This document shows, piece by piece, positions 3,844 to 47,800 of a DNA stretch of 64,000 nucleotides. The DNA is taken from the NCBI GenBank assembly GCA_964543815.1, contig CAZIZG010000007.1:2781-66780 (forward strand), given 5' to 3'. Made by a program: the position numbers and the translations under genes. The notes beneath the pieces are model-generated. The model worked only from the letters and a program-made list of their open reading frames with translations. It had not been told where the DNA came from and made no database searches. Numbering within the stretch: position 1 is the first letter of the stretch; the number at the start of each line of letters is the position of its first letter. Source of the DNA: an uncultured Bdellovibrionales bacterium. Lineage in GTDB: Bacteria > Patescibacteriota > Minisyncoccia > Moranbacterales > UBA1568.

Positions 3844-3904
3844 TACCTCACCACTGTACTTTAAACAAGCGATTTTTTCAAGTTTTTTAGATTAACAAGA
3901 TACA

Positions 3905-3937
3905 GAAAAACAACGCCCTTGCGGACGTTGTTTTGAA
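3905..3937 (-). terminator. Intrinsic terminator after the DUF4349-like gene
   Basis: On the minus strand: AACAACGUCC-GCAA-GGGCGUUGUU hairpin with a GNRA tetraloop, followed by UUUUUCU. Confidence 0.5.
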
Positions 3938-3947
3938 TGAACTCACG

Positions 3948-4985
3948 TTATTTTTTCCTCAATACCCGGCGCTTCTCCTCAAGGAGACCCGGCCAGAATT
4001 TTGCCAAAGCCCGTCGCACCACGATATAGATGGCCCAAAGTATGACACCGTCTATGATAAGGGCCGGTAATCCGACAATGAGGAACTGAATACCCCCCTC
4101 AACAACATCGCCAAAAAATTGGAGCAGTGAAAGGAGTGATGCTTTGAGCGTCTGGAGTGGTCGAAATCCCTGATTGACTTTTACTTGAACATCCTCAGTC
4201 AAAAAGACCGTGATTGTGGCAAGACTCGTTTGACTATCAAGGTAACGCTTCTGACCTTCGAGCGATTCAATTTCGCTTCGCACTGCTGCTAAGCGATCAG
4301 TGACCTCCATCACATCGCTTATCTTCACTGCTCGATCAAAAAGAGTTTGAAGTGTCGCTTCGGCAGCTTTTTTGTTATTGATACGCGCTTCGAGGTCGAT
4401 AACCTGAGCTGTCACATCCATTCCAGACACATCTTCTGAAAGCGTGACATTGGCCAGGGCTTTCAAACGCGTCATTGCCTCATCAAATTTTTCTGTCGCT
4501 ACTCTGATGGTAACTGTCCCGCTCTTGCTTCCACCAATCACCTGATCGAGGTGAGTATCACTCACCGTACCGCCGAGCTCTCCCGCTACCGTCCTCATAC
4601 CCGCGAGCGCTTCATCGGCATTTTTTACCTGAACACTGAGACTTCCGATCCGTACTACTTTTTGTTCAGCAACTTCAGAAACTGATGGAGCAGCCATCAT
4701 CGGCATACTTGATTTTTCCATCATGCCCGACTTGTCACTTGATCCATTCATCATGAAACTATCGGCCTCCACTCTCATCCCCATAGGACTGAGCCCAATT
4801 TCGTTTACTGAAGTCATCTTGGTTGCTCTCTGCATCATGGGTGACCCATACATACCCGACCGAGAAACCTCTCGACGATCACCAGCAAAAAACACGGTCA
4901 CAAAAAAAACCAGGGCAAGCAAACCAAGGAGACCCACGAGAGCCAGACCAAGTGTTCGCACAAATTTTTGCGAGACTGTCCGCAT
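3948..4985 (-). CDS. Membrane-anchored DUF4349-like protein
   Basis: 345 aa with an N-terminal TM, a central soluble domain with a coiled segment, and a C-terminal TM followed by RRVLRKK. Architecture matches DUF4349. Confidence 0.5.
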   Translation of the reverse strand: MRTVSQKFVRTLGLALVGLLGLLALVFFVTVFFAGDRREVSRSGMYGSPMMQRATKMTSVNEIGLSPMGMRVEADSFMMNGSSDKSGMMEKSSMPMMAAPSVSEVAEQKVVRIGSLSVQVKNADEALAGMRTVAGELGGTVSDTHLDQVIGGSKSGTVTIRVATEKFDEAMTRLKALANVTLSEDVSGMDVTAQVIDLEARINNKKAAEATLQTLFDRAVKISDVMEVTDRLAAVRSEIESLEGQKRYLDSQTSLATITVFLTEDVQVKVNQGFRPLQTLKASLLSLLQFFGDVVEGGIQFLIVGLPALIIDGVILWAIYIVVRRALAKFWPGLLEEKRRVLRKK

Positions 4986-4999
4986 ATTTTTATATTATG

Positions 5000-5033
5000 A
5001 ATAAGAGCGAGAATAAATATTCTCGCTCTTATT
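5000..5033. terminator. Perfect 16-bp palindromic hairpin; likely terminator of the atp operon, possibly bidirectional
   Basis: aataagagcgagaata-aa-tattctcgctcttatt, located between the atpC stop and the start of the DUF4349 gene. Confidence 0.45.
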
Positions 5034-5060
5034 CTACACCTCTTGTTTCAGATTTCCAAT

Positions 5061-5501
5061 TTATTCACTCGTTGGCAAAATGCCACGCCGGGCCTGATGC
5101 CGTCTCGCTACTTTTACCCGGGCCAATTCTTTTTCGATCATAGCGGCAGTCCGGGCATACTCCTCATCATCCATCGTGACGCGCTCTTTTTTGAGTGCTT
5201 CCGCTCGAGCACGTGCCTCCTCTGCTCGCGTAACATCAATATCTTCTGCTCGCTCCGCCGTATCAGCAAGAATCGAGAGGATATCATCATGAAACTCCAC
5301 GAAACCACCCGAGGTTGCGAGACTGGTCTCGGGTCCATTTGGCTCAGATCGGAGCATAATCTCCCCAGCCGACAAAGCACCGATATAGGGCACATGATGG
5401 GGCAGGAGCGTCACCTCGCCACCTACTACTGGCAGAGTGGCTTGGTAAATCTCCTGTTCAATCACTTTTTTTTCAGGCGTCACCACCTTAAGCTTTATCA
5501 T
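5061..5501 (-). CDS. atpC: F1 ATP synthase epsilon subunit
   Basis: 146 aa. The N-terminal beta-sandwich (LKVVTPEK...GEVTLLP) plus C-terminal helices is typical of the epsilon subunit. Last gene of the atp operon. Confidence 0.9.
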   Translation of the reverse strand: MIKLKVVTPEKKVIEQEIYQATLPVVGGEVTLLPHHVPYIGALSAGEIMLRSEPNGPETSLATSGGFVEFHDDILSILADTAERAEDIDVTRAEEARARAEALKKERVTMDDEEYARTAAMIEKELARVKVARRHQARRGILPTSE

Positions 5502-9409: not shown

Positions 9410-9808
9410 TTAATGACTGATTAATTTTTTCATGATGCCCAGTTCACCACGGACCGTAGCATCATAGGACTGCTCCACTGTTTCAAAACGTGCGCCACCC
9501 ATCACGGATGAGTCCACCACGAACTCCGCTTCAATTTTCTTCCCAGGAAACAAAATCTCAGCTTTCTTGAGGAGCCGCGTCCGTGACGTCTCGTCTACCT
9601 CGTGTGCTGTTATAATCTTCACCGTGAGTAGTCCAAGAGCTCGCTTGGCTCGAACTTCAAGCTCTCGCACCACGAGGGGCAATTTCTTCATTTCTCCGTG
9701 ACGCTTCAGATACTCTGAAAAATATTGCACGAGTGCCACTGGACGCACCGAAGTATCGGAAGCGAGTTCCTCGAGCGCCTGCGCGTATTGTGTCACCGTC
9801 GGACGCAT
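9410..9808 (-). CDS. atpH: F1 ATP synthase delta (OSCP) subunit, short form
   Basis: 132 aa, positioned between atpF and atpA with an OSCP-like helical N-terminus. Confidence 0.75.
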   Translation of the reverse strand: MRPTVTQYAQALEELASDTSVRPVALVQYFSEYLKRHGEMKKLPLVVRELEVRAKRALGLLTVKIITAHEVDETSRTRLLKKAEILFPGKKIEAEFVVDSSVMGGARFETVEQSYDATVRGELGIMKKLISH

Positions 9809-9820
9809 ACCTCTAGATAT

Positions 9821-10306
9821 TTAGGAGAGTTTCTTTTCAATGAGAGCAGCGTCAGTTTTCGCATCCAATTTTTCCCGAAGGATTTTTTCTACTGACAGCA
9901 TCACAAGCGCACCAATTTCGTCTTTGGCCGCGTTCATCATGCTGTCCTTTTCCTCCCGGATTTTCTCTTCCGCCTCCGCGAGCATACGCTTGACTTTGGC
10001 TTCCGTTTGCAACGCCTGCTCAGCGTCACGTTTCTTAGCGCCGGTCTCCGCTGCTACGAGTATCGCCTTGGCCTCTTTGCGTGCCTCAGTGAGCACGGCC
10101 TCTTCTTTAGCTGCTACCTCCGAGAGTTTCGCCGTCGCTGCTTCAGCATCCTTCAGTCCGCGCTCAATCCGCGCTGCCCGTTGCTCGAGAAAATCAAGCA
10201 TCGGTCGATAGGCATACCGGCGTAATACCCAAAATAAGATGGCAAAATTCACTGCCTGTGCCAGGAGAAGCTTCCAATCAACACCCAGTTTAGCGAGTAC
10301 GTCCAT
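9821..10306 (-). CDS. atpF: Fo ATP synthase b subunit
   Basis: An N-terminal TM followed by a long charged coiled coil; 161 aa. Confidence 0.85.
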   Translation of the reverse strand: MDVLAKLGVDWKLLLAQAVNFAILFWVLRRYAYRPMLDFLEQRAARIERGLKDAEAATAKLSEVAAKEEAVLTEARKEAKAILVAAETGAKKRDAEQALQTEAKVKRMLAEAEEKIREEKDSMMNAAKDEIGALVMLSVEKILREKLDAKTDAALIEKKLS

Positions 10307-13587: not shown

Positions 13588-14460
13588 CTACTCCTTGACC
13601 AACTGAGGGAAGATGCGTTCAAAATTTGCTTCCGTGGCTTTTTCTACCTCGACTACCGTGACGTCATGAAGCTGCGCTATCCGGTGAGCAACCCCAAGTA
13701 CAAGGGCTGGTTCATTGCGTTCCCCTCGATGTGTCTGTGGCGCAAGAAACGGACAGTCCGTCTCGGTAAAAATGCGCTCAAGCGGAATCATTGTGACTGT
13801 TTCCGAGAGGTCATCTTTGGTGCCGACGATCGCCTTTTTCACTGGGTAGGTGATATTACCCGTGAAGGAAAAAAAGACATTCGGTAACGTCAAAAATTTT
13901 TTGGTCACTTCCGTGTCGCCCATATAACAGTGAAGGATAGCTGCCTTCAAGAGAGGACTCTGCTCTTGTAATATTTCAAACATATCACGGTAAGCATCAT
14001 CACTTCCGGGACTCGCCCGACAATGTAGAATCAGCGGAAGCTCAAGTTCTATGGCAAGATGTATCTGGGCCAAAAACCCTCTCTTCTGTCTCTCCTTTTG
14101 TTCGTCAGTAATGAGTTGCTTGGGATCATGGCTATAGTATTCTAATCCGCATTCTCCAATCGCTACGACCTTCTCATGCTTCGCCAATTCCCTCAGTTCT
14201 TTTATCTGATTTTCCAGATTCAAAATTCCGGATTCTAGATTTAAATCCTGGGGATGAATCCCGACGCTCGCAGAGATATCCGGGTATTCCTTCGCGAGCG
14301 CAACACACGCTTTACTTTCCTCCACCGTACAGCCAACCACAAAGAGCTTCTTCACACCAGCCTCTTTCGCACGCAAAATTACTGCGTCACGATCCGTGTC
14401 GTAACTGTGCCAATAAAGGTGAGTATGGATATCATACATAGTTGTCAGTTTTCGTATCAC
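13588..14460 (-). CDS. tatD: TatD-family metal-dependent hydrolase (DNase)
   Basis: Contains the TatD motif DIHTHL near the N-terminus and conserved His/Asp/Glu blocks. The true start may be the internal Met at 14439. Confidence 0.85.
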   Translation of the reverse strand: MIRKLTTMYDIHTHLYWHSYDTDRDAVILRAKEAGVKKLFVVGCTVEESKACVALAKEYPDISASVGIHPQDLNLESGILNLENQIKELRELAKHEKVVAIGECGLEYYSHDPKQLITDEQKERQKRGFLAQIHLAIELELPLILHCRASPGSDDAYRDMFEILQEQSPLLKAAILHCYMGDTEVTKKFLTLPNVFFSFTGNITYPVKKAIVGTKDDLSETVTMIPLERIFTETDCPFLAPQTHRGERNEPALVLGVAHRIAQLHDVTVVEVEKATEANFERIFPQLVKE

Positions 14461-14465
14461 TTGCT

Positions 14466-14630
14466 ATGGTAGGGGCAACGCCACTCCCCCTAGGAGACAC
14501 CGTGCGCCTTCGTCACCGCGAAATGCTCCAGGCCATCCTCATCTGCGCCATGCTCATGGCAGTCGGTCTCTTGGCCAGCCACTTCGGCACCATCGACCTT
14601 GACGGACTCTTCGCCCTGGCCCGCACCTGA
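14466..14630 (+). other. GC-rich islet with a possible small plus-strand ORF (35-54 aa, one TM) or a structured sRNA
   Basis: Local GC and GC3 are far above the flanks. A TTGTCA-17-TATGGT promoter-like element lies at 14442-14470 and a plus-strand terminator at 14650-14681. No convincing SD was found, so coding status is uncertain. Confidence 0.25.
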
Positions 14631-14649
14631 GCAACGCTCGACCCCATAC

Positions 14650-14681
14650 GACCGAAACATCGGTCGTTTTTCATTTATTTT
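14650..14681 (+). terminator. Intrinsic terminator on the plus strand
   Basis: gaccga-aaca-tcggtc hairpin followed by GUUUUUCAUUUAUUUUAUU. The U-tract is only on the plus strand. Confidence 0.45.
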
Positions 14682-16120
14682 ATTCGTTGAAAAAGCGGTT
14701 CCACTTTTCCAGACATGAGAGCGGTAGCAATCTTGTCAGACGTACCTGGGAGAAACGGTCGAATCTCCGACCCAATGAGCGCCAATTGGTGCCTGGCATA
14801 TTTCATTACCTCAACAAACTTCTCTGATCGGGCTTCTAGTTTCCATGGCTCTTCTTTGCCGAGGTATTCATTGAGCATTTGGACGTTCGTCCAGATATGA
14901 ACGAGGGCACTCGAGAGGTCAAACTTAGCAAAGAAGGGTTCGAGTGCTCCAGACACCCCTTCCTCTGTCACTTCAATCTGCTTCGCCTCTTCGGTTGAAA
15001 GTTTTTCACTCAATTTGATGATGCGTGACACTAAATTGCCAAGGCCATTAGCCAAATCCGCATTGTATTTCTCGATCATTTTTTCCCACGATAAATCACC
15101 ATCTCGCGTGTACGGGAGTGCCGTGATGAGGAGATAGCGTGTCCCATCGATACCGAACTTTTCCACCAATTCATTCGGGTAGATGACATTGCCGAGAGAC
15201 TTCGACATTTTCTGACCATTGATGGTCAGATACTCATGTGCATAGATAGTGGTCGGAAGCGGGATGTCAGCTGAGAGGAGCATGGCTGGCCAGTAGATAG
15301 CATGGAAGCGAAGGATACCCTTGCCAATGACGTGCACCCGCTCGGAATCGCTCGCCCAGAATTGCTGATACAAATCCCCATCAGTGGCATAATCGAGCGC
15401 CGTGATGTAGTTCGAAAGCGCATCTACCCATACGTACATAATCTGTGTCTCATCCCCTGGTACTGGTACACCCCAGTTGCGGGCTCGAGCCACCGAACGA
15501 GAGATAGAGAAATCCTCGAGGCCCATCTTGAGAAACGACACTACTTCGTTCTTGCGATAGTCAGGATATATAGCAAGCTCACCACTCTCAATGAGTACAA
15601 GAAGTCTCTCCTGATAGTTGGAAAGTTTGAAAAACCAGTTTTCTTCTTCCACAACTTCTGGCTCCTTCAGATGATCCGGACACTCGCCGTTCACCAGGTC
15701 TTTCTCATTTTTAAACTCTTCACAGCCGACACAGTAGAGCCCTCTATACTTCTTCTTGTACAAATCTTCCGGTTTGAATGCAGCCCACATCTTTTGCGCC
15801 CCCACGAAGTGGCGCTCTTCGGTCGTCCGAATGAACTGATTAAAAGACAAATCAAGAGACTGGGCAAGCGCTTTGAAAGCCTCGGCATTTTCCGCTACAA
15901 ATTCTTTTGTTTCTCGACCAGCTTTCTCCGCCGCTTGGACATTCTTGAGACTGTTTTCATCCGAACCAGTGAGGAAGTAGGTTGGGCGGGACTGCTTGGC
16001 ATAGCGAGCCACGACGTCGGTCAACACCTTCTCAACCGCATGGCCAACATGAGGCGCTGCGTTGACATAGTCAATAGCCGTCGTGATAAAAAATGGCTTA
16101 TTTTCAGTATTATTTCCCAT
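14675..16120 (-). CDS. metG: Methionyl-tRNA synthetase
   Basis: 481 aa with the HIGH-type motif APHVGHA, KMSKS and a Cys-rich knuckle (CVGCEEF...CPDH). Confidence 0.95.
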   Translation of the reverse strand: MGNNTENKPFFITTAIDYVNAAPHVGHAVEKVLTDVVARYAKQSRPTYFLTGSDENSLKNVQAAEKAGRETKEFVAENAEAFKALAQSLDLSFNQFIRTTEERHFVGAQKMWAAFKPEDLYKKKYRGLYCVGCEEFKNEKDLVNGECPDHLKEPEVVEEENWFFKLSNYQERLLVLIESGELAIYPDYRKNEVVSFLKMGLEDFSISRSVARARNWGVPVPGDETQIMYVWVDALSNYITALDYATDGDLYQQFWASDSERVHVIGKGILRFHAIYWPAMLLSADIPLPTTIYAHEYLTINGQKMSKSLGNVIYPNELVEKFGIDGTRYLLITALPYTRDGDLSWEKMIEKYNADLANGLGNLVSRIIKLSEKLSTEEAKQIEVTEEGVSGALEPFFAKFDLSSALVHIWTNVQMLNEYLGKEEPWKLEARSEKFVEVMKYARHQLALIGSEIRPFLPGTSDKIATALMSGKVEPLFQRIK

Positions 16121-16126
16121 AATATC

Positions 16127-16155
16127 TTGACACTTCGTTATTTATGATGTATAAT
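16127..16155 (+). promoter_or_regulatory. Consensus sigma70-type promoter
   Basis: TTGACA (16127-16132), 17-nt spacer, TATAAT (16150-16155). Confidence 0.5.
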
Positions 16156-16209
16156 GCATAGAACAGTACCATCGGTGCTGTCAGTTCCCCAACAACCTGG
16201 AGGTCCAAC

Positions 16210-16485
16210 ATGGACACCGAAGAGAAATTGACTGGGATCGAGGCCTTCTTGTTCGATACGGCCATGGGCGTCGCCATTGTGCTGGGTTGGCTCCTCGCAG
16301 CGGGGAGCTATCTGCTCCAACCGGAACGCAAGCAAACCCTCCAGCATGACTGGAACAGCCGGAAGGACTTCCGGCAAAGCGGCCTCCAACCGCAAAGTCG
16401 CGATGTGAGCGGCATGGTCATCGCCGGCATCACGCTGGTGTTGATCGCAGTGACCCTGATTGCCCTCTACCCCCGCCCTCTCTGA
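16210..16485 (+). CDS. Small GC-rich two-TM membrane protein (91 aa)
   Basis: SD TGGAGGT lies 6 nt upstream of the ATG. Two hydrophobic helices. GC3 is high relative to neighbours and the gene is followed by a terminator. Confidence 0.55.
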   Translation: MDTEEKLTGIEAFLFDTAMGVAIVLGWLLAAGSYLLQPERKQTLQHDWNSRKDFRQSGLQPQSRDVSGMVIAGITLVLIAVTLIALYPRPL

Positions 16486-16490
16486 CCCCC

Positions 16491-16530
16491 GAGCCCGATG
16501 CGTACTGCGCGTCGGGCTCGAACACTTTTT
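16491..16530 (+). terminator. Intrinsic terminator
   Basis: gagcccga...tcgggctc 8-bp stem followed by GAACACUUUUU. Confidence 0.6.
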
Positions 16531-16688
16531 AAGAACCCTTTTTCATACTATAAGTCATTTTCTTTCAGAAAAGCAATGGGAGAGAGCGTAGAATTCACCC
16601 GAAGAAATTCTTAGGTTCACCATTGTGTGCTCCCACAAAGCGGACCGGCTATGCCGGATTACACAGGATTCACCCCGTGAAATATCCG

Positions 16689-17408
16689 CTAAGCGGATAC
16701 CTTGTCTGACAAGGATTTCACAGGGTAAACAATAATCGTAAACTCTCCCTTCATTTTCCCAACCTTGGCCATCAAATATTCTTTTATCTCGGTCACACTT
16801 CCCCGTACCACTTCTTCAAAAACCTTGGTCAGCTCTCGTCCGAGAACGAGTTTTTTGTGAGGTGCCAGTTCAGTGAGAAACTCGAGATTTTTTATGACTC
16901 GATGAGGCGATTCGTAGTAGATAACTGGCAAAGCACTTGCAGCCACTTGTTTGAAAAAAGTCTCTCTCCCCTTCTTGTGAGGTGGAAATCCCAAGAAAGT
17001 GAATTCGCGCATATCAATCCCGGCCACTGAGATAATCGCTCCAAGAGCTGATGCACCAGGGATTGGTACTACCTGTATCCCTGCGGTAGCGGCGAGGGAC
17101 ACCAAGACATTGCCCGGGTCAGATATTCCCGGTGTGCCAGCATCAGTGACGAGCGCCATATTTTCACCCGCAAGCATCCGGTCGATGAGTTTCTGTGCTT
17201 TGTCCGCTTCGGTATGCTCATGAAAAGAAATGAGCGGTTTCTTCATTTCAAAATGACGAAGGAGATGGCCGGTGACCCGCGTATCTTCGGACAACACCAC
17301 ATCAACACTTTTCAGAGTCTCAAGCGCCCGAAGAGTGATATCACCGAGATTCCCAATAGGCGTAGCCACGATGTAGAGGATACCTGAAATCATACAAGAA
17401 ATTTTCAA
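16689..17408 (-). CDS. rsmI: 16S rRNA (cytidine1402-2'-O)-methyltransferase
   Basis: N-terminal LYIVATPIGNLGDITLRALETL and the tetrapyrrole-methylase fold motifs. Confidence 0.9.
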   Translation of the reverse strand: MKISCMISGILYIVATPIGNLGDITLRALETLKSVDVVLSEDTRVTGHLLRHFEMKKPLISFHEHTEADKAQKLIDRMLAGENMALVTDAGTPGISDPGNVLVSLAATAGIQVVPIPGASALGAIISVAGIDMREFTFLGFPPHKKGRETFFKQVAASALPVIYYESPHRVIKNLEFLTELAPHKKLVLGRELTKVFEEVVRGSVTEIKEYLMAKVGKMKGEFTIIVYPVKSLSDKVSA

Positions 17409-17495
17409 TTTTCAAACAATGTTTTAATTTCTTAATTTTGAAATTTGTTCATTTTGAATTGTTTAAAAATTGAAACTTAGAAATTAGAAATTTAC

Positions 17496-18527
17496 TTATC
17501 CTTGCTTTTCTTTCTTGAGCAGCAGGTCTTCCACAAACACCGAGAGAATCATCGTAATCGGAACAGAAAGAATGATACCAAGTGCGCCACCAAGCTCCAA
17601 TCCGACCAGAATAGCGATAATGAGAGCAACCGGATTGAGACCAGCCGAATGTTTCATCACCTGTGGCGCCACGATGTGTGCCTCCACCTGATGGGCCACG
17701 ATATAAAAGGCGAGGGCTGAAACACCGAGAAGTGGCGAAGAAAGAAGACCGACCAAGATAGCTGGCACGGCAGCAAGTACCGGTCCGACATAGGGAAGAA
17801 TCTCCATGAACCCACCAAAGAACGCTATGGCCAGCGCATACGGAACATCAAGGAGCGAAAGTCCGACAAAATAGATACCAAAAGCGATGACCATGAGCAG
17901 CATTTGGCCAAAAAGCCACTGACTCACCTTGCCCTGCATCCGGGTGGCAAGTGAGCGAGCCTGAGCATGGTATTCCTTGGGTGTCATGAGGAGAAAGAAT
18001 TTTTCAATACCTTGTTCCTCAAGCGACAGGTAGAGAGCGAGGAAAAAATATCCAATGAAATGGATAAAACCCTGAAACAGATTGATGGTGGTCGAAAAAA
18101 TTTGTGAGAACCAATGAGAGATATTACCCTCAATATTTTGCGAAAACTCATCTTTGCTGAACTCTATCCCGATACTCTCTGCGTATAACTGGATACCATT
18201 CATGAAAGAATCAAGCCGCTTGGTATACTGTGGCCAGTTGTCGAGAAACTGCTTGATTTCCGAGAAGAAGAGTGGCAGAAATACCGCGAGTAATATCACT
18301 CCTATGGCAAACAAAATCGCGTAGGCAATAATAACTGCCGCCGTCCGTGACAAACCAAACTTTTGGAGCCGGGTGATAGCTGGTACCAAAGCTGCCGCTG
18401 TCAATACCGAGAGAAGAACAAGAATAACCACATCCCGAATGAGATACACGACATAGGCCGCTGCCAAAAGGAGCGCTGCTCGCACAAGCACTTTGGTTCC
18501 CACTTCAACGTGGTCACTCACCGTCAT
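17496..18527 (-). CDS. AI-2E family transporter (PerM/UPF0118)
   Basis: 343-aa polytopic protein with a conserved C-terminal block (FFGGFMEILPYVGPVLAAVP). Confidence 0.85.
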   Translation of the reverse strand: MTVSDHVEVGTKVLVRAALLLAAAYVVYLIRDVVILVLLSVLTAAALVPAITRLQKFGLSRTAAVIIAYAILFAIGVILLAVFLPLFFSEIKQFLDNWPQYTKRLDSFMNGIQLYAESIGIEFSKDEFSQNIEGNISHWFSQIFSTTINLFQGFIHFIGYFFLALYLSLEEQGIEKFFLLMTPKEYHAQARSLATRMQGKVSQWLFGQMLLMVIAFGIYFVGLSLLDVPYALAIAFFGGFMEILPYVGPVLAAVPAILVGLLSSPLLGVSALAFYIVAHQVEAHIVAPQVMKHSAGLNPVALIIAILVGLELGGALGIILSVPITMILSVFVEDLLLKKEKQG

Positions 18528-18537
18528 AGTATTTCCA

Positions 18538-19806
18538 TTAAAATTTCACCAGTTTTTTTAACTTGGCAACAGACGCCTTGGGTCCGATGACCGCGAGGTT
18601 AAGTTTTTTATTGACGAAAATATCACCTGCCACCCGGAGCACATCATCAGCGGTCACTTGATCAATCCTTTTGGCTACTTCTTTGGGAAGCGTAATCTCA
18701 CCTCGAATAGTTTCCTGACTCACCAGATACTCTACTACATCATCTGAGCCCTCGAGTCCCATAGCGAGTTTACCCTTGATATATTCCTTGGCCTTTTTCA
18801 ATTCTGACGCCTCTACTTTTTCTGTAGCAACCTTTCGGTACTCGTCAAGAATAACAGCGATAGTCTTTTCCAAATTTTCATGCTCCACTCCAGCCTGAGT
18901 AGCAAGATAACCAGCATCATGGAAGGCCTCAGTCATAGTATGGACACTGTAGGCCAACCCCCGTCGCTCCCGCACCGCCATGAAGAGTCGACTCGACATC
19001 CCGCCGCCCAAGAGGGTTGAGAGGACCGAGAGAACATAGCGATCGGGATGAAACATATCATAGGTTCGTACTCCAAGAATGAACTGAGTCTGATCTGTCT
19101 TTTTCGATTGTACGAAAACCTCCGGAACACTCTGCTTCTTGGTATTTTTCTTGAAAACTGGCCTCTTACCCGTCCTGATACCAGCAAAATGTTTTTCAAT
19201 CTCTTTCTTTACTCTCTTAGGATCAATATTGCCCGCCACCCCAATCACCACGTTTTCAGCCACGTAGCCCCGCTTCAAGTACTTGATGAAGTCAGCTCGC
19301 ATGAAGCGCCTCAGGTTTTCTTTGGGACCAATAATCTCCCAACCGAGTGGCGTATCACCATAGAGATGAAGCTCCCACAGGTCGCCGATATGACGCATGG
19401 GCATATCTTCATACATATTGAGTTCCTGAAGCACCGGGCCACGCTCGCGATCAATCTCCTCCTGTTCGATTTTGGCGTTGAGAAAGAGATCGGAGACTAC
19501 GTCCAGTGCTGTCTCCCAATGATGCGCCTCCACTTTAGCATAGTAGGCGGTACGATCCTTGCCGGTATAAGCGTTGTATTCCGCCCCAATAGCATCGAGT
19601 TCCTTGGAAATATCCATCGCGGTCGGTCGACGCTCTGTCCCTTTGAAAAACATGTGTTCAAGAAAGTGCGCCAAGCCATTTTCTGCTCGCGTCTCATAGC
19701 GTGACCCGACTCCGGTCATCACAATGACCGTGGCTGTCTGCGTCTCCTTCATCGGTGCGAGTAATACTCTCAGTCCGTTCTTTAGGGTGTATTTCTGGTA
19801 TTTCAT
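18538..19806 (-). CDS. M16-family zinc peptidase (insulinase-like)
   Basis: Inverted zinc-binding motif HFLEHMFFKGT...E; 422 aa. Confidence 0.85.
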   Translation of the reverse strand: MKYQKYTLKNGLRVLLAPMKETQTATVIVMTGVGSRYETRAENGLAHFLEHMFFKGTERRPTAMDISKELDAIGAEYNAYTGKDRTAYYAKVEAHHWETALDVVSDLFLNAKIEQEEIDRERGPVLQELNMYEDMPMRHIGDLWELHLYGDTPLGWEIIGPKENLRRFMRADFIKYLKRGYVAENVVIGVAGNIDPKRVKKEIEKHFAGIRTGKRPVFKKNTKKQSVPEVFVQSKKTDQTQFILGVRTYDMFHPDRYVLSVLSTLLGGGMSSRLFMAVRERRGLAYSVHTMTEAFHDAGYLATQAGVEHENLEKTIAVILDEYRKVATEKVEASELKKAKEYIKGKLAMGLEGSDDVVEYLVSQETIRGEITLPKEVAKRIDQVTADDVLRVAGDIFVNKKLNLAVIGPKASVAKLKKLVKF

Positions 19807-19817
19807 GAGAAATAATC

Positions 19818-21203
19818 TTAATGTTGTTTCAAATAATCGGTAAGTTCCGTAATCTGTACTCGTTCCTGCTGCATCGTGTCGCGGTCACGGACAGTAACAG
19901 CACCGTCGGTCAGAGTATCGAAGTCCACTGTTACACAGTGCGGGGTACCAATCTCATCCTGACGGCGGTAGCGCTTGCCGACATTACCGTTATCATCGAA
20001 CTCACAGCGGAAATCTTTTTTAAGCGAGTTGAAAATTTCTCTGGCTTTCTCTACCAATTCCGGTTTGTTCTTCATGAGTGGAAACACGGCTACCTGTACC
20101 GGAGCGAGTTTCTTCGGAAACCTAAGGACAATCCGAGTATCGCCTTCACCCACCTCTTCTTCCGTATACGCGTCAGTGAGCACGGCCAAAAAGGTACGTT
20201 CCACACCAACAGAAGTCTCGACAATCCACGGCACAAATTTTTCATTGGTCTGTGGATCGCGATAGGAAAGATCGACACCTGAGGACTTAGCATGCTGGGT
20301 CAGATCATAGTCACTGCGGTTATGTATGCCTTCAAGCTCCTTAAAACCAAAGGGGAAATTATACTCAATATCCCACGCTGCCTTGGCATAGAACACCAGG
20401 TTCTCATGCTGGTGGAAGCGGAGATTTTCTGGTTTGATACCAAGGTCGATATAGTATTGGAACCGCTTGGCCCGCCACTCCTCATAGACAGCGGCTGCCT
20501 CGCTGGGATGTACGAAATACTGCATTTCCATCTGTTCGAATTCACGCTTACGAAAAATAAATTGGCGAGCGGTAATTTCATTGCGGAACGCCTTACCAAT
20601 CTGGGCGATACCAAACGGCACTTTCACCCGAGAAGAATCAAGGACGTTTTTGAAATTGACGTAGATACCCTGACAAGTCTCACCACGGAGGTAGGTCGGC
20701 TCCTTGGTCCAATCGCCTGTGAAATTGCCGAGGTTTGACTGAACCAAAAGATTGAAGCTCTTCGCTTCACTGAAGTTCTGCTTGCCACACTTCGGACACT
20801 TTACCTTGGTTTTGTTATCAGTAAACAACTGGTTGATTTCTGCTTCCGTCATCTTTTCATCAGCAAACACCCCTACTTCCTCCAGAAGATGATCGACACG
20901 TACACGCGAGTGACACTCTTTGCACTCGGCGAGCGGATCCGAAAATCCTCCCACATGACCCGATGCCTCCCAGACCCGTGGGTGCATAAATATCGCACTA
21001 TCAAGCCCGACGATGTTCTCATGATCACGCACCATCGCCTGCCACCAAGCCTCGCGGATATTCTTGGCGAGCTCCACCCCGTATGGACCGAAATCATACA
21101 CGGCCGCAAATCCCCCGTAGATTTCTGAAGAGGGAAAGATGAATCCGCGCCGCTTGCACAGTGACACTATTTTTTCCATCACATCGTTCTTGGTCTCGGC
21201 CAT
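19818..21203 (-). CDS. glyQS: Glycyl-tRNA synthetase (alpha2 dimeric type)
   Basis: Class II motifs with a GlyRS-type N-terminus (MAETKNDVMEKIVSLCKRRGFIFPSSEIYGG). The track's first codon is TTG at 21215; ATG at 21203 is more likely. Confidence 0.93.
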   Translation of the reverse strand: MAETKNDVMEKIVSLCKRRGFIFPSSEIYGGFAAVYDFGPYGVELAKNIREAWWQAMVRDHENIVGLDSAIFMHPRVWEASGHVGGFSDPLAECKECHSRVRVDHLLEEVGVFADEKMTEAEINQLFTDNKTKVKCPKCGKQNFSEAKSFNLLVQSNLGNFTGDWTKEPTYLRGETCQGIYVNFKNVLDSSRVKVPFGIAQIGKAFRNEITARQFIFRKREFEQMEMQYFVHPSEAAAVYEEWRAKRFQYYIDLGIKPENLRFHQHENLVFYAKAAWDIEYNFPFGFKELEGIHNRSDYDLTQHAKSSGVDLSYRDPQTNEKFVPWIVETSVGVERTFLAVLTDAYTEEEVGEGDTRIVLRFPKKLAPVQVAVFPLMKNKPELVEKAREIFNSLKKDFRCEFDDNGNVGKRYRRQDEIGTPHCVTVDFDTLTDGAVTVRDRDTMQQERVQITELTDYLKQH

Positions 21204-21208
21204 AGTAG

Positions 21209-21237
21209 TTGACAAAATATGAATTCTCCTGTATAGT
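21209..21237 (+). promoter_or_regulatory. Near-consensus sigma70-type promoter
   Basis: TTGACA (21209-21214), 17-nt spacer, TATAGT (21232-21237). Confidence 0.5.
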
Positions 21238-21321
21238 ATACAAGTTGTTTTACAAGTTCATAGTACAGGCAAATCCCTGTTGTTTCAACCCAAAAGGCTC
21301 TCGCCGCTCGTTGGAGGATAC

Positions 21322-21609
21322 ATGCACTCGACTTCATATGCCGCACAAATGTGGGAGGTAGTCTCACATCTGGGATACATTCAGCTGGCCGGCGGCATCT
21401 TCTGCATAGGTGTCATTGCCTGCGTCGGAGCGATGCTCTGCTGGATCAAAGGCCGGTGGAAGAAGCCACCTTGTCCCAGAGCAACCTGCCAGTCCACCGA
21501 CGTGGAGCGCTTCACGCTCCCAAATGACCCAATCCGTCTCGTCCACTATCGCTGCCGCATGTGTGATCACGAGTGGCAAAGTGGTCCCACCCTCGTAGGA
21601 AACCATTGA
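21322..21609 (+). CDS. Small membrane-anchored zinc-ribbon protein (95 aa), GC-rich
   Basis: SD GGAGGA lies 5 nt upstream of the ATG. One TM followed by CPRATC...(x20)...CRMC. Paralogue of the next ORF. Confidence 0.55.
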   Translation: MHSTSYAAQMWEVVSHLGYIQLAGGIFCIGVIACVGAMLCWIKGRWKKPPCPRATCQSTDVERFTLPNDPIRLVHYRCRMCDHEWQSGPTLVGNH

Positions 21610-21619
21610 AGGAGCATCC

Positions 21620-21868
21620 ATGGAAAAGCTGAATCCCTATCTGCTCTTCGCCATCATCATTGGCGGCTTCGGCTTCCTGTGGCTTTGCTGGCGCCTGTGG
21701 CGACAAGAGACCCCCAAGTGCCGCTGCGGCTCCGCAGGCCGGCTGGTGATGACCCACGAGTCCGGTCAGCGAACCATCCACACCTACCACTGCCGTGCGA
21801 ACTGCGGCAACGTCTGGGAGGTCACGGACCGGAGCTTCGAAGAGCGGCGAGTGAACAGCTGCAACTGA
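21620..21868 (+). CDS. Small membrane-anchored zinc-ribbon protein (82 aa), GC-rich
   Basis: SD GAAGGAG lies 6 nt upstream. One TM followed by CRCG...(x19)...CRANC. Same architecture as the upstream ORF. Confidence 0.6.
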   Translation: MEKLNPYLLFAIIIGGFGFLWLCWRLWRQETPKCRCGSAGRLVMTHESGQRTIHTYHCRANCGNVWEVTDRSFEERRVNSCN

Positions 21869-21876
21869 AAACAACC

Positions 21877-21909
21877 AAGCGCGAACGGTAACACCGGCCG
21901 CGCTTTTTT
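21877..21909 (+). terminator. Intrinsic terminator
   Basis: aagcgcg...cgcgctt stem with an inner cggt/accg helix, then UUUUUU. Confidence 0.55.
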
Positions 21910-29513: not shown

Positions 29514-32501
29514 TTATGACCGCTTGAGACTCAAGGTAAATACTTCACCATCGAGCGTGACAGTTTCTTGATACTCAGCATCAGCTAAAATACCTTTTTC
29601 TATTGTTGTCGCCAGCACTTCGCGAGCGATATCAGCTTCAAACTGAGCAAATACTTCTTCTTTGCCTACATAGCTTAAAACGATACGGTCCTCGACATTG
29701 AACTGGGCCTTCTTGCGTCCCTCTTGAATAGCCCGTACCACCTCACGCATCTCACCTTCGAGTTTGAGTTCGGGAGTGATAGTTAAATCAAGAATGGTCA
29801 TTGAGCCCTTGTATTCATCCTTGTAACCTTCACTATCATAAATCTTCACATTTAATTCTTCCTTTACTATTTCTTGAAGTTCCAGGCCTAGCGGTCTAGC
29901 ACTCACTGAAGATAACGGTTGTCGCACCTTAATTCCATGTTTTACTCTATCATTCAGCCCTTCCGTTACAATGAAGCGAGCAAGTTTCATATCTTCATTC
30001 AACTTCTCATCAACTAAAGCCGAATCTACCACTGGATAATCAACAAGATGCACTGACTCTTCTCCCGTGAGACCACGATAGATTTCCTCAGCGATAAACG
30101 GTGTGAATGGCGCCATCAGTTTCGAGAGCGTGACTAAAACTTCATAGAGCGTCTGGTAAGCCTGCTCTTTATCGGTATCATCTTCTGATTTCCAGAAACG
30201 TTTGCGGCCCCGACGGATATACCAGTTGGAGAGGTTATCAACAAACGGCGTAAAGGCCCGAGTGGCACGGTTCAGTTCGTAGGTTTCCATGGCGCCGTTC
30301 ACCTCCTTGATGAGAAGTTGAAGCTCGGAGAGGATCCAGCGGTCCATCAGATTCTCCGATGACTTCGCGTTTTCTTTGGGGGTCCAGTTATCGATACTCG
30401 CATACGTGGTAAAAAACGAGTACGAATTCCAAAGCATGCGGAAGACGTTCCTGACGATATCAGACAGGTCCCGCTCCGAAAAATTCAAATTCTCGGCGGC
30501 CACCACCGGTGACGAAAGGAGATAGAACCGCAAAGCATCTGACCCATACTTATTGAGGATCTCCATCGGGTCAGGATAGTTTTTGAGCTTCTTCGACATT
30601 TTCTTCCCATCCTCAGCCAAGACGATACCGTTCACGATAACATTCTGAAACGCGTTACTTTCTTTGATACCAGTGGCGATAACGTGCTGGTAGTAGAACC
30701 AGGCTCTGGTCTGATCAACTCCCTCCGCAATAAACTGGGCCGGAAATGCGGCATCAAACTGTTCCTTGTTTTCAAACGGATAGTGCCGCTCACCATAGGG
30801 CATGGAGCCCGAATCAAACCAGGTATCAAGGACATCTGGGGTGCGTTCCATAGTGCCACCACACTTGGGACAAGGTACTGTCACCCGATCAACCACATGC
30901 TTGTGAAGATCATCCACTTTAACTCCGCTTGCTTTTTCAAGTTCTGCCACCAAACCAAACACTTGCTTCTCACCGCAAGCACACAGCCACAGCGGCATAA
31001 CAGAAGCCCAAAATCGCTGCCGACTGATAGACCAATCCCGGGCACCCTCAAGCCACTTCCCCCAGCGTCCCTCCTTAATATGCGTAGGTGACCAGTGAAT
31101 ACCCTTGGCAAGCTCGAGCATCTTCGGCTTGATTTTCGTTACTGCCACAAACCACGAACTCGTCGCATAGTTGAGAAGCGGGGTATCACAGCGCCAGCAG
31201 TGCGGATATGAGTGCTCATATTTTTCTTTGGCAAAGAGTGTCCCGTGCTTAGCGAGATACTTGATAATCTCGACATCCATCGCTGATGGATCTTCTTTGG
31301 ATTTCACTGGCTGGCCGGCAAAATCTGATACTTCAGGTTTCATCGTCCCATCCATGGCAACATGCTGTACCCACGGCAGATTATTCGCTTGGCCAAGTTG
31401 CATATCATCTTCACCAAAGGCCGGCGCCTCATGAGCAATACCTGTCCCCATATCGGTCGTGACGAAGTCAGCATGATAAATCTTCCAGCCATTTTCACGA
31501 TGCTCAAGTTTTTCGTCCTTGGCGTAATAATCAAAAAGTGGTTTGTAAGCTTTACCAACAAGTTCAGAACCATTAAACGAAGATACTTGCTCAAAAGAGT
31601 AATTTAAATTCATCTTCTGACACCAATCACTATCATTCAATTTTTCTTCAAAAAAATTTTTGGCCACAATCAGAAAACTCTCGCTAGTACTTGGTCGAGT
31701 ATAGTTTTCTGGTTTCGAAAGATCATTAACGATCATTTCGGCATATTGACGCACCTTTACATACTCAATATCCTTATTCACTGCCAAGGCGACATTGCCC
31801 GGCAAGGTCCACGGTGTCGTGGTCCAAGCCAAGACAAAAGTTCCCGGTTCGTCTACCAATTCAAACTTGGCTGTCACTGCCAAATCTTTCACGTCCTTGT
31901 AGCCTTCGGCGACTTCTGATTGAGAAAGGGTCGTCTCACAACGCGGACAGATATGCATGGTCCGATACGATTCATAGATGAGTCCCTTGTCCCACAGTTC
32001 CTTAAATACCCACCAAACACTCTCCATGAAATCCCGATCCATAGTGCGGTAGGCATTCTCCATGTCCGCCCAGCGACCGAAGCGACGCATCACTTTTTTC
32101 CACTCCCCTACATATTCAAGCACTTTAGAGCGACAAATCTCATTAAACTTCTCAATCCCGAGCGCCACGATTTCTTTCTTGTGAGTCATCCCGAGTTCCT
32201 TCTCTGCAATGTTCTCGATGGGTAGACCATGGCAGTCCCACCCCCACTTACGTTCTACTTGATACCCCCGCATAGTAAAGTAACGCGGCACGGTATCTTT
32301 GATAGCGCTCGCCACGATATGACCATAGTGTGGTGTCCCGGTAGCAAATGGCGGCCCATCATAAAACGTATAGCGTTCTTTCCCCTCGCGATTGATAACA
32401 GACTTCTCAAATATCTTGCGATCTTCCCAATACTGGACGATTGATTCTTCCAACTTCGGAAAACTCACTTGTGACGCCACCTTCTTAAATTTCATAGCCA
32501 T
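29514..32501 (-). CDS. ileS: Isoleucyl-tRNA synthetase
   Basis: HYGH and KMSKK motifs with a CP1 editing domain. The start is placed at AUGGCUAUGAAAUUUAAG (MAMKFKK) because the track's first Met lies inside the T-box terminator stem. Confidence 0.95.
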   Translation of the reverse strand: MAMKFKKVASQVSFPKLEESIVQYWEDRKIFEKSVINREGKERYTFYDGPPFATGTPHYGHIVASAIKDTVPRYFTMRGYQVERKWGWDCHGLPIENIAEKELGMTHKKEIVALGIEKFNEICRSKVLEYVGEWKKVMRRFGRWADMENAYRTMDRDFMESVWWVFKELWDKGLIYESYRTMHICPRCETTLSQSEVAEGYKDVKDLAVTAKFELVDEPGTFVLAWTTTPWTLPGNVALAVNKDIEYVKVRQYAEMIVNDLSKPENYTRPSTSESFLIVAKNFFEEKLNDSDWCQKMNLNYSFEQVSSFNGSELVGKAYKPLFDYYAKDEKLEHRENGWKIYHADFVTTDMGTGIAHEAPAFGEDDMQLGQANNLPWVQHVAMDGTMKPEVSDFAGQPVKSKEDPSAMDVEIIKYLAKHGTLFAKEKYEHSYPHCWRCDTPLLNYATSSWFVAVTKIKPKMLELAKGIHWSPTHIKEGRWGKWLEGARDWSISRQRFWASVMPLWLCACGEKQVFGLVAELEKASGVKVDDLHKHVVDRVTVPCPKCGGTMERTPDVLDTWFDSGSMPYGERHYPFENKEQFDAAFPAQFIAEGVDQTRAWFYYQHVIATGIKESNAFQNVIVNGIVLAEDGKKMSKKLKNYPDPMEILNKYGSDALRFYLLSSPVVAAENLNFSERDLSDIVRNVFRMLWNSYSFFTTYASIDNWTPKENAKSSENLMDRWILSELQLLIKEVNGAMETYELNRATRAFTPFVDNLSNWYIRRGRKRFWKSEDDTDKEQAYQTLYEVLVTLSKLMAPFTPFIAEEIYRGLTGEESVHLVDYPVVDSALVDEKLNEDMKLARFIVTEGLNDRVKHGIKVRQPLSSVSARPLGLELQEIVKEELNVKIYDSEGYKDEYKGSMTILDLTITPELKLEGEMREVVRAIQEGRKKAQFNVEDRIVLSYVGKEEVFAQFEADIAREVLATTIEKGILADAEYQETVTLDGEVFTLSLKRS

Positions 32502-32755
32502 AAAATATAAAATCCTTAGCATAAAAACATGCTAAGGACGCTTGGAAATCAAACGTGGTACCACCTTGCTTCTCCGTCTGAGACGGACTCATTACAGCTT
32601 TCACGGGCTTACCCGCCAAGGTCTACTCGTCGCTCCGAAGCTTCTCGGCACATGACGACGTTCTTCTTGGAGCTCTGGAGTGATGCCGACCATTTCGGCC
32701 GGGTCTCCTTCGACGCTGCTGGCCTCATGGTAGCAACAGCTCATCAAAAAATCAA
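32502..32755 (-). promoter_or_regulatory. T-box leader (tRNA-sensing riboswitch) with intrinsic terminator, upstream of ileS
   Basis: The minus-strand RNA contains the T-box consensus ...AAGGUGGUACCACG... (UGGU bulge, implying an A73 discriminator). A candidate specifier AUC-A sits in an internal loop. A terminator hairpin CCUUAGCAU-GUUUUU-AUGCUAAGG plus U-tract lies immediately 5' of the ileS start. Confidence 0.6.
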
Positions 32756-47047: not shown

Positions 47048-47138
47048 CGTAACCCACCGTGTAGAAAATGAAAAGCCATTTTTATTTTCAGTGGCAAAAA
47101 CTTGCTTATTTGAGCCAAATGTGGGACAGTATGAACAT

Positions 47139-47588
47139 ATGACTACGATTGCTCAAAATAAGCGCGCCGGGTTTGATTATGCCCTCGAAGAACGTTTCGA
47201 GGCTGGATTAGTATTGACCGGATCTGAGGTAAAATCGGTTAAAACAGGCCATGCCAGCCTCAAAGGAGCCTATGTCACCGTGAAAGGCAATGAACTCTAC
47301 CTCACCAACGCCTTGATCCCCCGTTACAAACAAGCCCACAAGGAAACTAAACACGATGATACTAGGCCACGAAAGCTATTATTGCGCAAGAGAGAAATCG
47401 GCTCTCTCATAGGAAAATACCGTACCGAAGGCTTGACTTTAGTCCCAATTCGGTTGTATACTAAGAAGCAACTTGTGAAGCTTGAGTTCGCGGTTGGTAA
47501 AGGAAAGAAGGAATACGATCGCCGCGCAGACATCGGGCAGCAAGAAGCGAAGCGGCGCATCGCACGTGCCATGCGTAGTAAACACTAG
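47139..47588 (+). CDS. smpB: SsrA-binding protein
   Basis: KRAGFDYALEERFEAGLVLTGSEVKS...; start at ATG 47139, 150 aa. Confidence 0.92.
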   Translation: MTTIAQNKRAGFDYALEERFEAGLVLTGSEVKSVKTGHASLKGAYVTVKGNELYLTNALIPRYKQAHKETKHDDTRPRKLLLRKREIGSLIGKYRTEGLTLVPIRLYTKKQLVKLEFAVGKGKKEYDRRADIGQQEAKRRIARAMRSKH

Positions 47589-47593
47589 TACGT

Positions 47594-47800
47594 ATGGAAA
47601 TTGAGTCGATAGCAGGAGTTGTTGCGCTCATTTTTACCGCTATTTTCGTGTATTCGTTCTTTGATAGCTTTGACATTATCAGCATTATTCTCGATTACAC
47701 CATTCCAAAGCATGTTATTCAAAAAACACGTATTGTATTGGGAGTTCTCGCTGGTATCACGACTCTGATCTATCTCGTACTGGTAATCATGTCAAAGTAA
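47594..47800 (+). CDS. Possible small two-TM membrane protein between smpB and ssrA
   Basis: 68-aa hydrophobic ORF with no SD; coding status is doubtful. Confidence 0.25.
   Translation: MEIESIAGVVALIFTAIFVYSFFDSFDIISIILDYTIPKHVIQKTRIVLGVLAGITTLIYLVLVIMSK

Follow-up and report, generated by a model that had tools for sequence, protein, structure and literature searches.

Bacterial small membrane proteins include MgrB, AcrZ, KdpF and CydX. Genomes of the Candidate Phyla Radiation (CPR)/Patescibacteria are small and rich in membrane proteins without annotation that are believed to mediate the symbiotic lifestyle of these organisms (PMC6744442). Here, a 64 kb stretch of the Moranbacterales contig CAZIZG010000007.1 (GC 47.5%), referred to below as the window, was analyzed for four short islets, numbered 1 (14442–14681), 2 (16127–16530), 3 (21209–21909) and 4 (58265–58608), which encode the small proteins p42, p91, zr95, zr82 and p66. 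Like the known small membrane proteins, the membrane products of the islets are 40–95 aa long and combine one or two hydrophobic stretches with a short functional tail; they are made from short transcription units of their own and belong to a class that gene callers often miss or place on the wrong strand. We consider it probable that the islets are clade-specific Moranbacteria units for fast-evolving small proteins, inserted in an ancestor and inherited vertically since then as fixed, head-on "expression slots".

The minus strand holds nearly all genes of the window, and GC skew is negative in all of its 4 kb blocks. Because leading strands are as a rule G-rich, this makes the plus strand the lagging strand across the whole window. 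All four islets lie on the plus strand, head-on to replication, and oppose an otherwise uniform leading-strand gene array. A sequence-only reading of this DNA had placed each cassette divergently from a minus-strand housekeeping gene downstream, and both this arrangement and the names given to the neighbors proved correct for all islets. Islets 1–3 adjoin the genes of TatD, MetRS, class II GlyRS and TGT (precomputed Pfam matches on an identical public contig), and islet 4 is flanked by the genes of a HhH-GPD glycosylase (MutY-like) and MnmA. Elsewhere in the window, intergenic gaps are rich in AT or contain small genes of an ordinary kind.

Conservation and Inheritance of the Islets

Relatives were collected by a metagenome scan with MetRS, which led to syntenic contigs at 69–90% MetRS identity, and by a scan of GTDB genomes with GlyRS, which gave one close relative (L001, GlyRS 86% identical), the rest being too distant for spacer comparison. 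Labels with "L" denote related contigs compared with the window, and labels with "P" denote homologous proteins. The nearest GlyRS relatives are CPR metagenome-assembled genomes, and MnmA homologs with 70–83% identity carry the source names Candidatus Moranbacteria or Moraniibacteriota.

Where the contigs reach, gene order in the relatives is tgt-(gap)-glyS-M16 peptidase-permease-rsmI-(gap)-metG-(gap)-tatD. At the same position and in the same orientation as in the window, the gaps hold a promoter (TTGAC(A/T), a 17-nt spacer, and TATAAT, TATAGT or TATACT), a conserved leader, a Shine–Dalgarno sequence (SD), a small hydrophobic open reading frame (ORF) and a terminator. Cassettes of islets 1–3 occupy the same junctions in every relative that covers them (L091–L099, L106, L113 and L001), with the single exception of L096, whose metG–tatD gap lacks the p42-type unit and its ORF. 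Since homologous cassettes, their regulatory DNA and their excess of GC at third codon positions (GC3) are kept down to 69% MetRS identity, islets 1–3 are old and vertically inherited rather than recently acquired. Conservation of the same small ORFs at the junctions is an outcome that the sequence-only reading had named as contrary to its own view of the cassettes; the host-like composition that it expected alongside was not found, as GC3 of islets 1–3 is raised in the relatives too.

Within this fixed frame, the encoded proteins diverge quickly. In divergent pairs whose MetRS or GlyRS are 69–94% identical, the small proteins share 27–45% identity, with 0.4–0.9 nonsynonymous substitutions per site (dN). 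At the DNA level, the housekeeping gene, promoter and leader align with the relatives, the ORF does not, and identity returns at the terminator. Promoter, leader and terminator would be under purifying selection, with the ORF diverging several-fold faster than its neighbors, changing in length and copy number and sometimes being swapped between relatives. The peptides may be small membrane proteins with an accessory, regulatory or cell-surface role, and selection on them may be diversifying or relaxed.

In L103, a more distantly related member of the Patescibacteria, rsmI, metG and tatD are contiguous, without gaps. Contiguous arrays in L103, L115, L119 and L120 indicate that the units were inserted into formerly contiguous arrays in the ancestor of the clade, which would have gained them between housekeeping genes that previously adjoined each other.

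The missing gaps of L103 also suit the view taken in the sequence-only reading, namely that the islets are recently acquired horizontal or selfish mini-cassettes, for instance of type I toxin-like membrane peptides, and that their high GC still reflects a donor with more GC. The atypical composition of islets 1–3, the orphan status of zr82 and p91, expression signals above those of any neighboring gene, the replacement of the islet 2 ORF between L091 and L092, the toxin-like size and hydrophobicity of p42, and the absence of islet 4 from L115 and L118–L120, with other cargo in L114 and L116, all agree with it. Recent acquisition would leave the site empty in close relatives, and this was observed for islet 4 but not for islets 1–3, whose cassettes, with homologous ORFs, regulatory DNA and GC3 excess, stay at their junctions over the whole range of MetRS identity covered. 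Islet 4, the sole islet with presence/absence polymorphism, has host-like composition. No flanking direct or inverted repeats (including terminal inverted repeats), no sequence common to the islets and no second copies were found within the window, and no homologs of the islet proteins were found in phage records, IMG/VR, PHROGs or PADLOC; plasmids were not searched. Overall, we regard recent acquisition as quite unlikely. What stands of the earlier claim is the insertion in an ancestor, the variation of islet 4 and the replacement of an ORF; for islets 1–3, retained at the same junctions and free of signs of mobility, recent acquisition does not hold.

Scans of the five islet proteins against Pfam, NCBIfam, PHROG and PADLOC gave no significant match, and neither did a Pfam scan of seven relatives. 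A common mobile element was ruled out by the absence of shared islet sequence and of flanking repeats.

Coding Capacity of the Islets

The islet 2 ORF of the closest pair, L096 and L106, shows a ratio of nonsynonymous to synonymous substitution rates (dN/dS) of 0.19 and an in-frame indel of four codons, and most other pairs lie at 0.3–0.6. ORFs antisense to those of the islets are not conserved in the relatives.

An alternative is that the islets are structured non-coding RNAs, their ORFs being artifacts of GC-rich sequence. Predicted transcripts of islets 1–3 do fold better than shuffled controls (z = −1.6, −3.75 and −3.2), and automatic gene callers disagree on the strand of p42 and zr95. 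However, the moderately stronger folding is largely due to the 5′ stem-loop and the terminators, and several observations point to translation: the GC excess is concentrated in the third positions of one frame, every ORF has an SD at a suitable distance from its start codon, homologous ORFs show in-frame indels, dN/dS below 1 and conserved cysteines, and amino-acid motifs are conserved among relatives whose ORF-body DNA is not. With Rfam 15 covariance models, the gathering threshold was reached in the window only by the transfer-messenger RNA (tmRNA) at 47848–48250, and at E ≤ 1 nothing was matched in any islet. The structured-RNA alternative, which had been kept open in the sequence-only reading, was rejected as highly improbable on the combined evidence of the Rfam result, codon periodicity, dN/dS below 1, the in-frame indel and a conserved C4 motif.

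Contigs of this genome are present in ERZ27283041, ERZ17988280 and SRR6837564-77. On the public contigs of the same organism (L081), antisense ORFs of 56 aa and 80 aa are annotated at 2871–3041 and 9745–9987 instead of p42 and zr95. Automatic annotation thus takes the wrong strand for two of the small genes. The recO gene is split on L081 into pieces of 61 aa and 202 aa; a single ORF of 254 aa is present in the window.

Composition of the Islets

In a GC profile calculated with 150-nt windows (mean 0.475, standard deviation 0.053), islets 1–3 form the three highest peaks of the 64 kb, at 14448–14676 (0.647), 16226–16543 (0.667) and 21602–21893 (0.68). In-frame GC3 is 0.83 for p42, 0.78 for p91, 0.65 for zr95 and 0.84 for zr82, compared with 0.48 ± 0.05 in about 50 larger genes. 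The values of p42, p91 and zr82 are reached by none of 14,000–17,000 equal-length in-frame windows of other genes, and that of zr95 lies in the top 0.9%. Cytosine at third positions (C3) makes up most of the excess (0.46 versus 0.21 overall), and total GC3 is raised as well. In islet 4, GC stays below 0.60 throughout, the 233-nt gap at 58293–58525 has a value of 0.54, and GC3 of p66 is an ordinary 0.50, equaled or exceeded by 48% of windows. The raised GC and GC3 once ascribed to all four islets is thus a property of islets 1–3.

Orthologous membrane-protein ORFs in the relatives, whose GC ranges from 0.42 to 0.52, exceed local genes by 0.07–0.34 in GC3, mainly through C3; the exception is the p42-type ORF of L094, with GC3 at the local level. 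A foreign relic would have ameliorated over such divergence, so the retained excess indicates that the bias is maintained, and its presence in orthologs of differing genomic GC means that the time of acquisition cannot be read from the atypical composition. Even a strong GC3 anomaly in one place is no proof of recent horizontal transfer, as its persistence in orthologs across relatives shows here.

The GC3 and C3 excess could combine the C skew of the lagging strand with selection on synonymous sites, for translation or mRNA stability. As an alternative second component, GC-biased gene conversion (gBGC) might act at a recombination-prone locus; this process has been described in recombining bacterial genes (PMC4450053). 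Lagging-strand (head-on) genes have been reported to evolve faster (PMC5585990), which is disputed (PMC8510543), and head-on orientation is a further candidate among the causes of the composition. Ordinary translational codon selection is a doubtful cause of the C3 excess, which ribosomal-protein genes of the same strand do not show.

Expression Signals

The motif TTGACA-N16–18-TAnnnT occurs four times in the 64 kb (1.4 expected), and three of the four sites are the cassette promoters at 16127, 21209 and 58265. The three near-consensus TTGACA-17-TAnnnT promoters recognized in the sequence-only reading are thus exact matches, at islets 2, 3 and 4; islet 1 has an extended −10 promoter. The fourth consensus site (61320–61348, plus strand) precedes the gene of an Rrf2-type regulator, followed by two more plus-strand ORFs. 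It is conserved (L114 60–32; L119 1894–1866), so that the true start of the long ORF 61251–61805 is probably further downstream.

Duplex energies of the five SDs run from −7.3 to −11.2 kcal/mol, compared with a median of −2.2 in other genes. When the best start within the first 40 codons is taken for the other genes, their median is −5.6 and 1 of 56 lies at or below −8.7. The cassette SDs, earlier described as stronger than those of most housekeeping genes, are the strongest in the window and, even against these best starts, exceed nearly all others. Intrinsic terminators end islets 1–3 (14648–14672, 16490–16530 and 21877–21909), and the terminator-like hairpin of islet 4 falls within mnmA coding sequence. 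Each islet forms an independent transcription unit; that of islet 3 is bicistronic and the other three are monocistronic. They offer clear promoters, ribosome-binding sites and terminators from a phylum with poorly known expression signals.

The Small Proteins and Their Junctions

The islets define four undescribed and well-delimited small-protein families, one of which combines a transmembrane (TM) helix with a zinc ribbon. The earlier list of products was sound as regards p91 with two hydrophobic stretches, the paralogous zinc-ribbon proteins zr95 and zr82, and the 66-aa p66.

Islet 1, in the metG–tatD gap, begins with a plus-strand promoter (14442–14470) that comprises TTGTCA at 14442–14447, a 17-nt spacer, and TATGGT at 14465–14470 with an extended −10 TG at 14462–14463. 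L098 and L094 share its hexamers, TG and spacing. The gene of p42 (14502–14630, plus strand) has an SD, AGGAG, at 14492–14496 and a GTG start, aligned with the ATG of L098. The 42-aa product, MRLRHREMLQAILICAMLMAVGLLASHFGTIDLDGLFALART, contains one hydrophobic, TM-like stretch by inspection, and the positive-inside rule predicts an N-in topology with a 17-aa acidic tail outside. Its syntenic homologs of 40–48 aa, among them those of L098 (40 aa) and of L094 and L091–L093 (44 aa), share the motif F/Y-x-PWQE-I/L-GE. An intrinsic terminator (14648–14672, plus strand), with an 8-bp stem and a T-run, abuts the metG stop codon and is conserved in L098, L094 and L091. In L091 (11441–12275), as well as in L092 and L093, the metG–tatD gap has an additional 181-aa gene in housekeeping orientation beside the p42-type cassette; its product looks like a Nudix-type hydrolase.

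Type I toxins are typically hydrophobic one-TM peptides of less than about 60 aa with a weak or sequestered ribosome-binding site. Size and hydrophobicity of this kind are seen in p42 but not in p91, zr95 and zr82 (82–95 aa, with extra domains) or the soluble p66, and a toxin-like reading would suit p42 at most. The cassette SDs are strong, without deep sequestration. With Hok, TisB, Fst and Ibs/Ldr, p42 has in common its 42 aa, single TM stretch, intergenic location, structured mRNA and position antisense to possible read-through from a neighbor; such housekeeping read-through could be a source of antisense RNA to the cassettes. It differs from these toxins in its strong and largely accessible SD, its near-consensus promoter and its occurrence at one syntenic site rather than in multiple copies. 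No antisense small-RNA gene was found either: a promoter and terminator scan of islets 1–3 detected no dedicated antisense unit, and the sole minus-strand site in the leaders was the glyS promoter candidate (21288..21260) described below.

The promoter of islet 2 (16127–16155, plus strand) in the rsmI–metG gap, TTGACA-17-TATAAT, matches the consensus at 12 of 12 positions, lies 7 nt from the opposite-strand metG start codon and is conserved in 8 relatives. It is followed by a stem-loop at the 5′ terminus of the mRNA (16163–16181, plus strand; arms ACAGUACC and GGUGCUGU), whose stem is kept in 6 sequences with one compensatory pair. The leader is conserved as far as the SD, GGAGG, at 16199–16203, and a weak 4-bp UUCC/GGAG pairing is the only conserved sequestration of the SD. 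The gene of p91 (16210–16485, plus strand; 91 aa) encodes two hydrophobic, TM-like stretches around a basic loop, as read from the sequence; by the positive-inside rule, the protein would form a hairpin with the loop in the cytoplasm. A word-seeded search of 5.8 × 10⁹ protein clusters matched the query alone. A homolog of 121 aa in L098 is 32% identical over 91 aa by BLAST and 39% over 83 aa by MAFFT, a syntenic homolog of 106 aa occurs in L091, and the remaining relatives have in common the second hydrophobic stretch and a tail C-x5-C-x-[FW]A..W. The intrinsic terminator (16490–16530, plus strand) has a 14-bp stem and a T-run, with compensatory changes at 8 of 13 pairs in 6 relatives.

Between this terminator and the rsmI stop codon (16540–16688), 19-nt direct repeats, AGAATTCACCCGAAGAAAT and AGGATTCACCCCGTGAAAT, lie 75 nt apart, and a small hairpin follows each of them; L091 and L092 retain part of this region. 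The rsmI–metG gap of L113 has a 3 kb insert (2261–5259).

Islet 3, between tgt and glyS, encodes two proteins. Its promoter (21209–21237, plus strand), TTGACA-17-TATAGT, has 11 of 12 matches, overlaps the glyS 5′ end and is conserved in L091, L098, L096, L001 and L092. The first gene (21322–21609, plus strand; SD GGAGG at 21313–21317) encodes zr95, 95 aa, which combines a TM helix at the N terminus with a C4 zinc ribbon (C51, C56, C78 and C81) at the C terminus. Only four homologs, all small, were found among 1.84 × 10⁹ representatives: P0123 (66% identical), P0124, P0129 and P0130. The second gene (21620–21868, plus strand; SD AGGAG at 21610–21614) encodes the paralog zr82, 82 aa, likewise a TM helix with a C4 zinc ribbon. 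The word-seeded search of 5.8 × 10⁹ clusters again matched the query alone, and syntenic homologs are present in L092 (37% by BLAST), L096 and L098. Homology of the zr95 and zr82 groups was established by hhalign profile–profile comparison (96% probability, E = 2.9 × 10⁻⁹) over the zinc ribbon.

The alignment of the family, which has one or two copies per genome, reads as a TM helix followed by P-x-C-P-x2-3-C...Y-x-C-x2-C-G-H-x-W; L001 has just a 26-aa stub. Residues C51, C78 and C81 are nearly invariant in 12 family members, and all four cysteines are invariant in zr95-group alignments, giving the two conserved cysteine pairs about 20–25 residues apart that characterize C4 zinc ribbons. An AlphaFold2 model of zr95 (predicted local distance difference test, pLDDT, 73) has a helix at residues 5–45 and then three strands. 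The family profile weakly matches TFIIS/RPB9 ribbons, with the TFIIS ribbon 1qyp at E = 1.3 × 10⁻³, and the top Foldseek matches of the model are all zinc ribbons, although at E ≥ 0.2. Both proteins may bind zinc. The positive-inside rule predicts an N-out TM helix, and as the ribbons come after a basic stretch, they should be cytoplasmic. The intrinsic terminator (21877–21909, plus strand) is 12 nt from the tgt stop codon and possibly bidirectional; DNA identity with the relatives picks up again within it, at 21894.

In the relatives, the glyS–M16 peptidase gap, 11 nt in the window, contains AT-rich inserts of 0.5–1.7 kb without clear ORFs (L091 5684–6398, L098 5663–6150, L096 4919–6656 and L106 2282–4013). 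GlyRS of L092 (902–2248) is 54% identical to that of the window, versus 94% for L091 (4325–5683), though metG of L092 and L091 is 96% identical. This contrast suggests displacement of glyS in a region that is mosaic and recombining.

Facing the islet 3 promoter, 22 bp from its −10 element, is a candidate minus-strand promoter (21260–21288), TTGAAA-17-TACTAT. As read from the alignment, six genomes retain its hexamers (TTGAAA/TTGAGC and TACACT/TACTAT/TACAGT) and the 17-nt distance between them, although the spacer itself varies, and the site is most simply taken as the glyS promoter. The predicted start sites, at about 21253 on the minus strand and 21244 on the plus strand, converge and overlap by about 10 nt. 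Converging, overlapping promoters are known to give transcriptional interference. Given this face-to-face arrangement, cassette transcription probably interferes with that of the neighboring housekeeping gene, and the pair presents a case in which transcription of an orphan gene and of an essential gene may interfere.

This geometry bears on another explanation, in which the act of transcription is the selected function. The head-on promoters would then be interference or antisense insulator modules that tune or separate tatD, metG, glyS and mutY, the peptide would be secondary, and the ORFs would be translated mainly against premature RNA termination and hence drift quickly. Besides the conserved glyS candidate and the converging start sites, such a function would explain why promoter, leader hairpin and terminator are far better conserved than ORF bodies. 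The cassette promoter lies at or overlaps the housekeeping start codon in 4/4 islets (in islet 2, at the 7-nt distance given above), one promoter drives unrelated cargo in islet 4, and the cassettes interrupt arrays whose genes adjoin or overlap in other lineages. However, purifying selection, the protein motifs (C4, PWQE-GE and C-x5-C), the strongest SDs of the window and the synonymous-site bias imply that the translated product matters, and searches of the cassette leaders for promoters of metG and mutY gave only weak, non-conserved candidates, none of them clear. We consider this explanation unlikely, and prefer that of vertically inherited units for small proteins.

Islet 4, at the mnmA–mutY junction, has the promoter TTGACA-17-TACACT (58265–58293, plus strand), which overlaps the mutY 5′ end, is nearly identical in L117 and has homologs in L114 and L116. 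The gene of p66 (58336–58536, plus strand; SD AAGGAGG at 58322–58328) encodes a soluble 66-aa protein, and there is an 11-nt overlap of its 3′ end with the mnmA stop codon. Syntenic homologs, of 63 aa in L117 and 71 aa in L116, are 36–37% identical. A single-sequence AlphaFold2 model has a beta-beta-beta-alpha order with low confidence (pLDDT 55), and its Foldseek matches (RNase H and Atu0232) are non-significant; Atu0232 (2k7i) ranks second, with E = 0.07 and a TM-score of 0.43–0.45. The structure 2k7i belongs to UPF0339, with the DUF1508/YegP-like small beta-beta-beta-alpha domain, and is a tentative lead for p66; no Pfam family was matched by p66 or its homologs. A terminator-like hairpin with a T-run (58582–58608, plus strand) lies inside the mnmA coding region, where it encodes ...KEKDPGLASGQF...; as it is also conserved in the cassette-free L115, its conservation is explained by MnmA coding.

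Cargo Turnover and Evidence Against Strict Vertical Descent

Several observations weigh against the interpretation of the islets as vertically inherited units for small proteins. Conservation is stronger in the regulatory shell than in the ORFs, which also fits transcription rather than the peptide as the selected function. Estimates of selection are limited, as the number of synonymous substitutions per site (dS) is saturated in most pairs, and dN/dS exceeds 1 in one p42 comparison. C3 is just 0.27–0.36 in ribosomal-protein and other plus-strand genes; strand skew thus accounts for part of the C3 excess, and from its low value in ribosomal-protein genes ordinary translational selection looks weak in this genome. 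High expression of the cassettes, which their signals suggest, is predicted from consensus matches only.

Further points concern descent itself. L091 and L092 are 96% identical over metG and the islet 2 leader and 86% identical over rsmI and the terminator, and the ORF between them is unalignable, the products being different proteins of 106 aa in L091 and 68 aa in L092. Islet 4 varies in presence and in cargo among equally distant relatives. Behind homologous promoters, the window and L117 carry a p66-type ORF, L116 an extra 141-aa ORF together with a p66-type ORF, and L114 an unrelated 142-aa ORF; the cassette is missing from L115, L118, L119 and L120, where mnmA and mutY abut or overlap. 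The ORF difference between L091 and L092 and the variation of islet 4 indicate that lateral exchange, at least among relatives, contributes.

A more far-reaching proposal, possible but doubtful in our view, is that the islets are fixed, highly expressed head-on slots in ancestral housekeeping operons, each with a conserved shell of promoter, leader and terminator and a small membrane-protein cargo that turns over by rapid divergence, duplication and recombinational swapping. The cargo would be host-interface, kin-discrimination or toxin/immunity peptides of an episymbiont, the convergent promoters would couple its expression reciprocally to that of aminoacyl-tRNA synthetase and repair genes, and the raised GC3 would be a footprint of gBGC at these hot spots of recombination.

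Other Features of the Window

A 1 kb gap at 383–1392 (GC 0.51, with a local peak of 0.61 at about 746–914) is without a long ORF, and its best Rfam match has E = 0.1. A T-box leader-like match on the minus strand (32531–32722; 46 bits against a gathering score of 93, E = 2.6 × 10⁻⁹) lies upstream of a 1002-aa ORF (29514–32522), which is presumably an aminoacyl-tRNA synthetase gene. No T-box was found upstream of metG and glyS. On the plus strand, a 165-aa ORF (47091–47588), which we take from its position alone to be smpB, lies upstream of the tmRNA gene (47848–48250, plus strand, 103 bits). Between the two is an unannotated 68-aa ORF (47594–47800, plus strand) with two hydrophobic stretches and an ordinary GC3 of 0.42. 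The rsmI–permease spacer at 17409–17495 (GC 0.16) is 84% identical to a non-syntenic place in L098 (reverse complement of 3851–3946) and could represent a short repeat or a promoter region present at both places.

Comparison with Known Systems

The islet 3 and glyS promoters resemble the pairs pR/pL of coliphage 186 and pIN/pOUT of IS10 in that they converge, their start sites overlap, and one promoter is near consensus and the other weak. They differ in pairing a housekeeping aminoacyl-tRNA synthetase gene with a small orphan gene, and the interference is predicted here from the DNA alone.

As in the literature on head-on genes and gBGC, the cassettes are lagging-strand units in a leading-strand array, evolve several-fold faster than their neighbors and have raised GC3. 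The soluble p66 departs from this pattern, being also head-on, yet with ordinary GC3.

Small membrane proteins of other bacteria have no sequence or family relation to the islet proteins, two of which carry a predicted cytoplasmic C4 ribbon after an N-terminal TM helix. The islet proteins are further set apart by hypervariability, the GC3 anomaly and head-on orientation. Variable lipoproteins of Mycoplasma, agrD and comC have repeats, phase-variation tracts, a lipobox or signal-peptide motif, or linked processing and sensor genes, from which the islets are free. What the islets share with them is the layout, a conserved promoter with its 5′ region and a conserved 3′ end around a coding segment that differs strongly between relatives.

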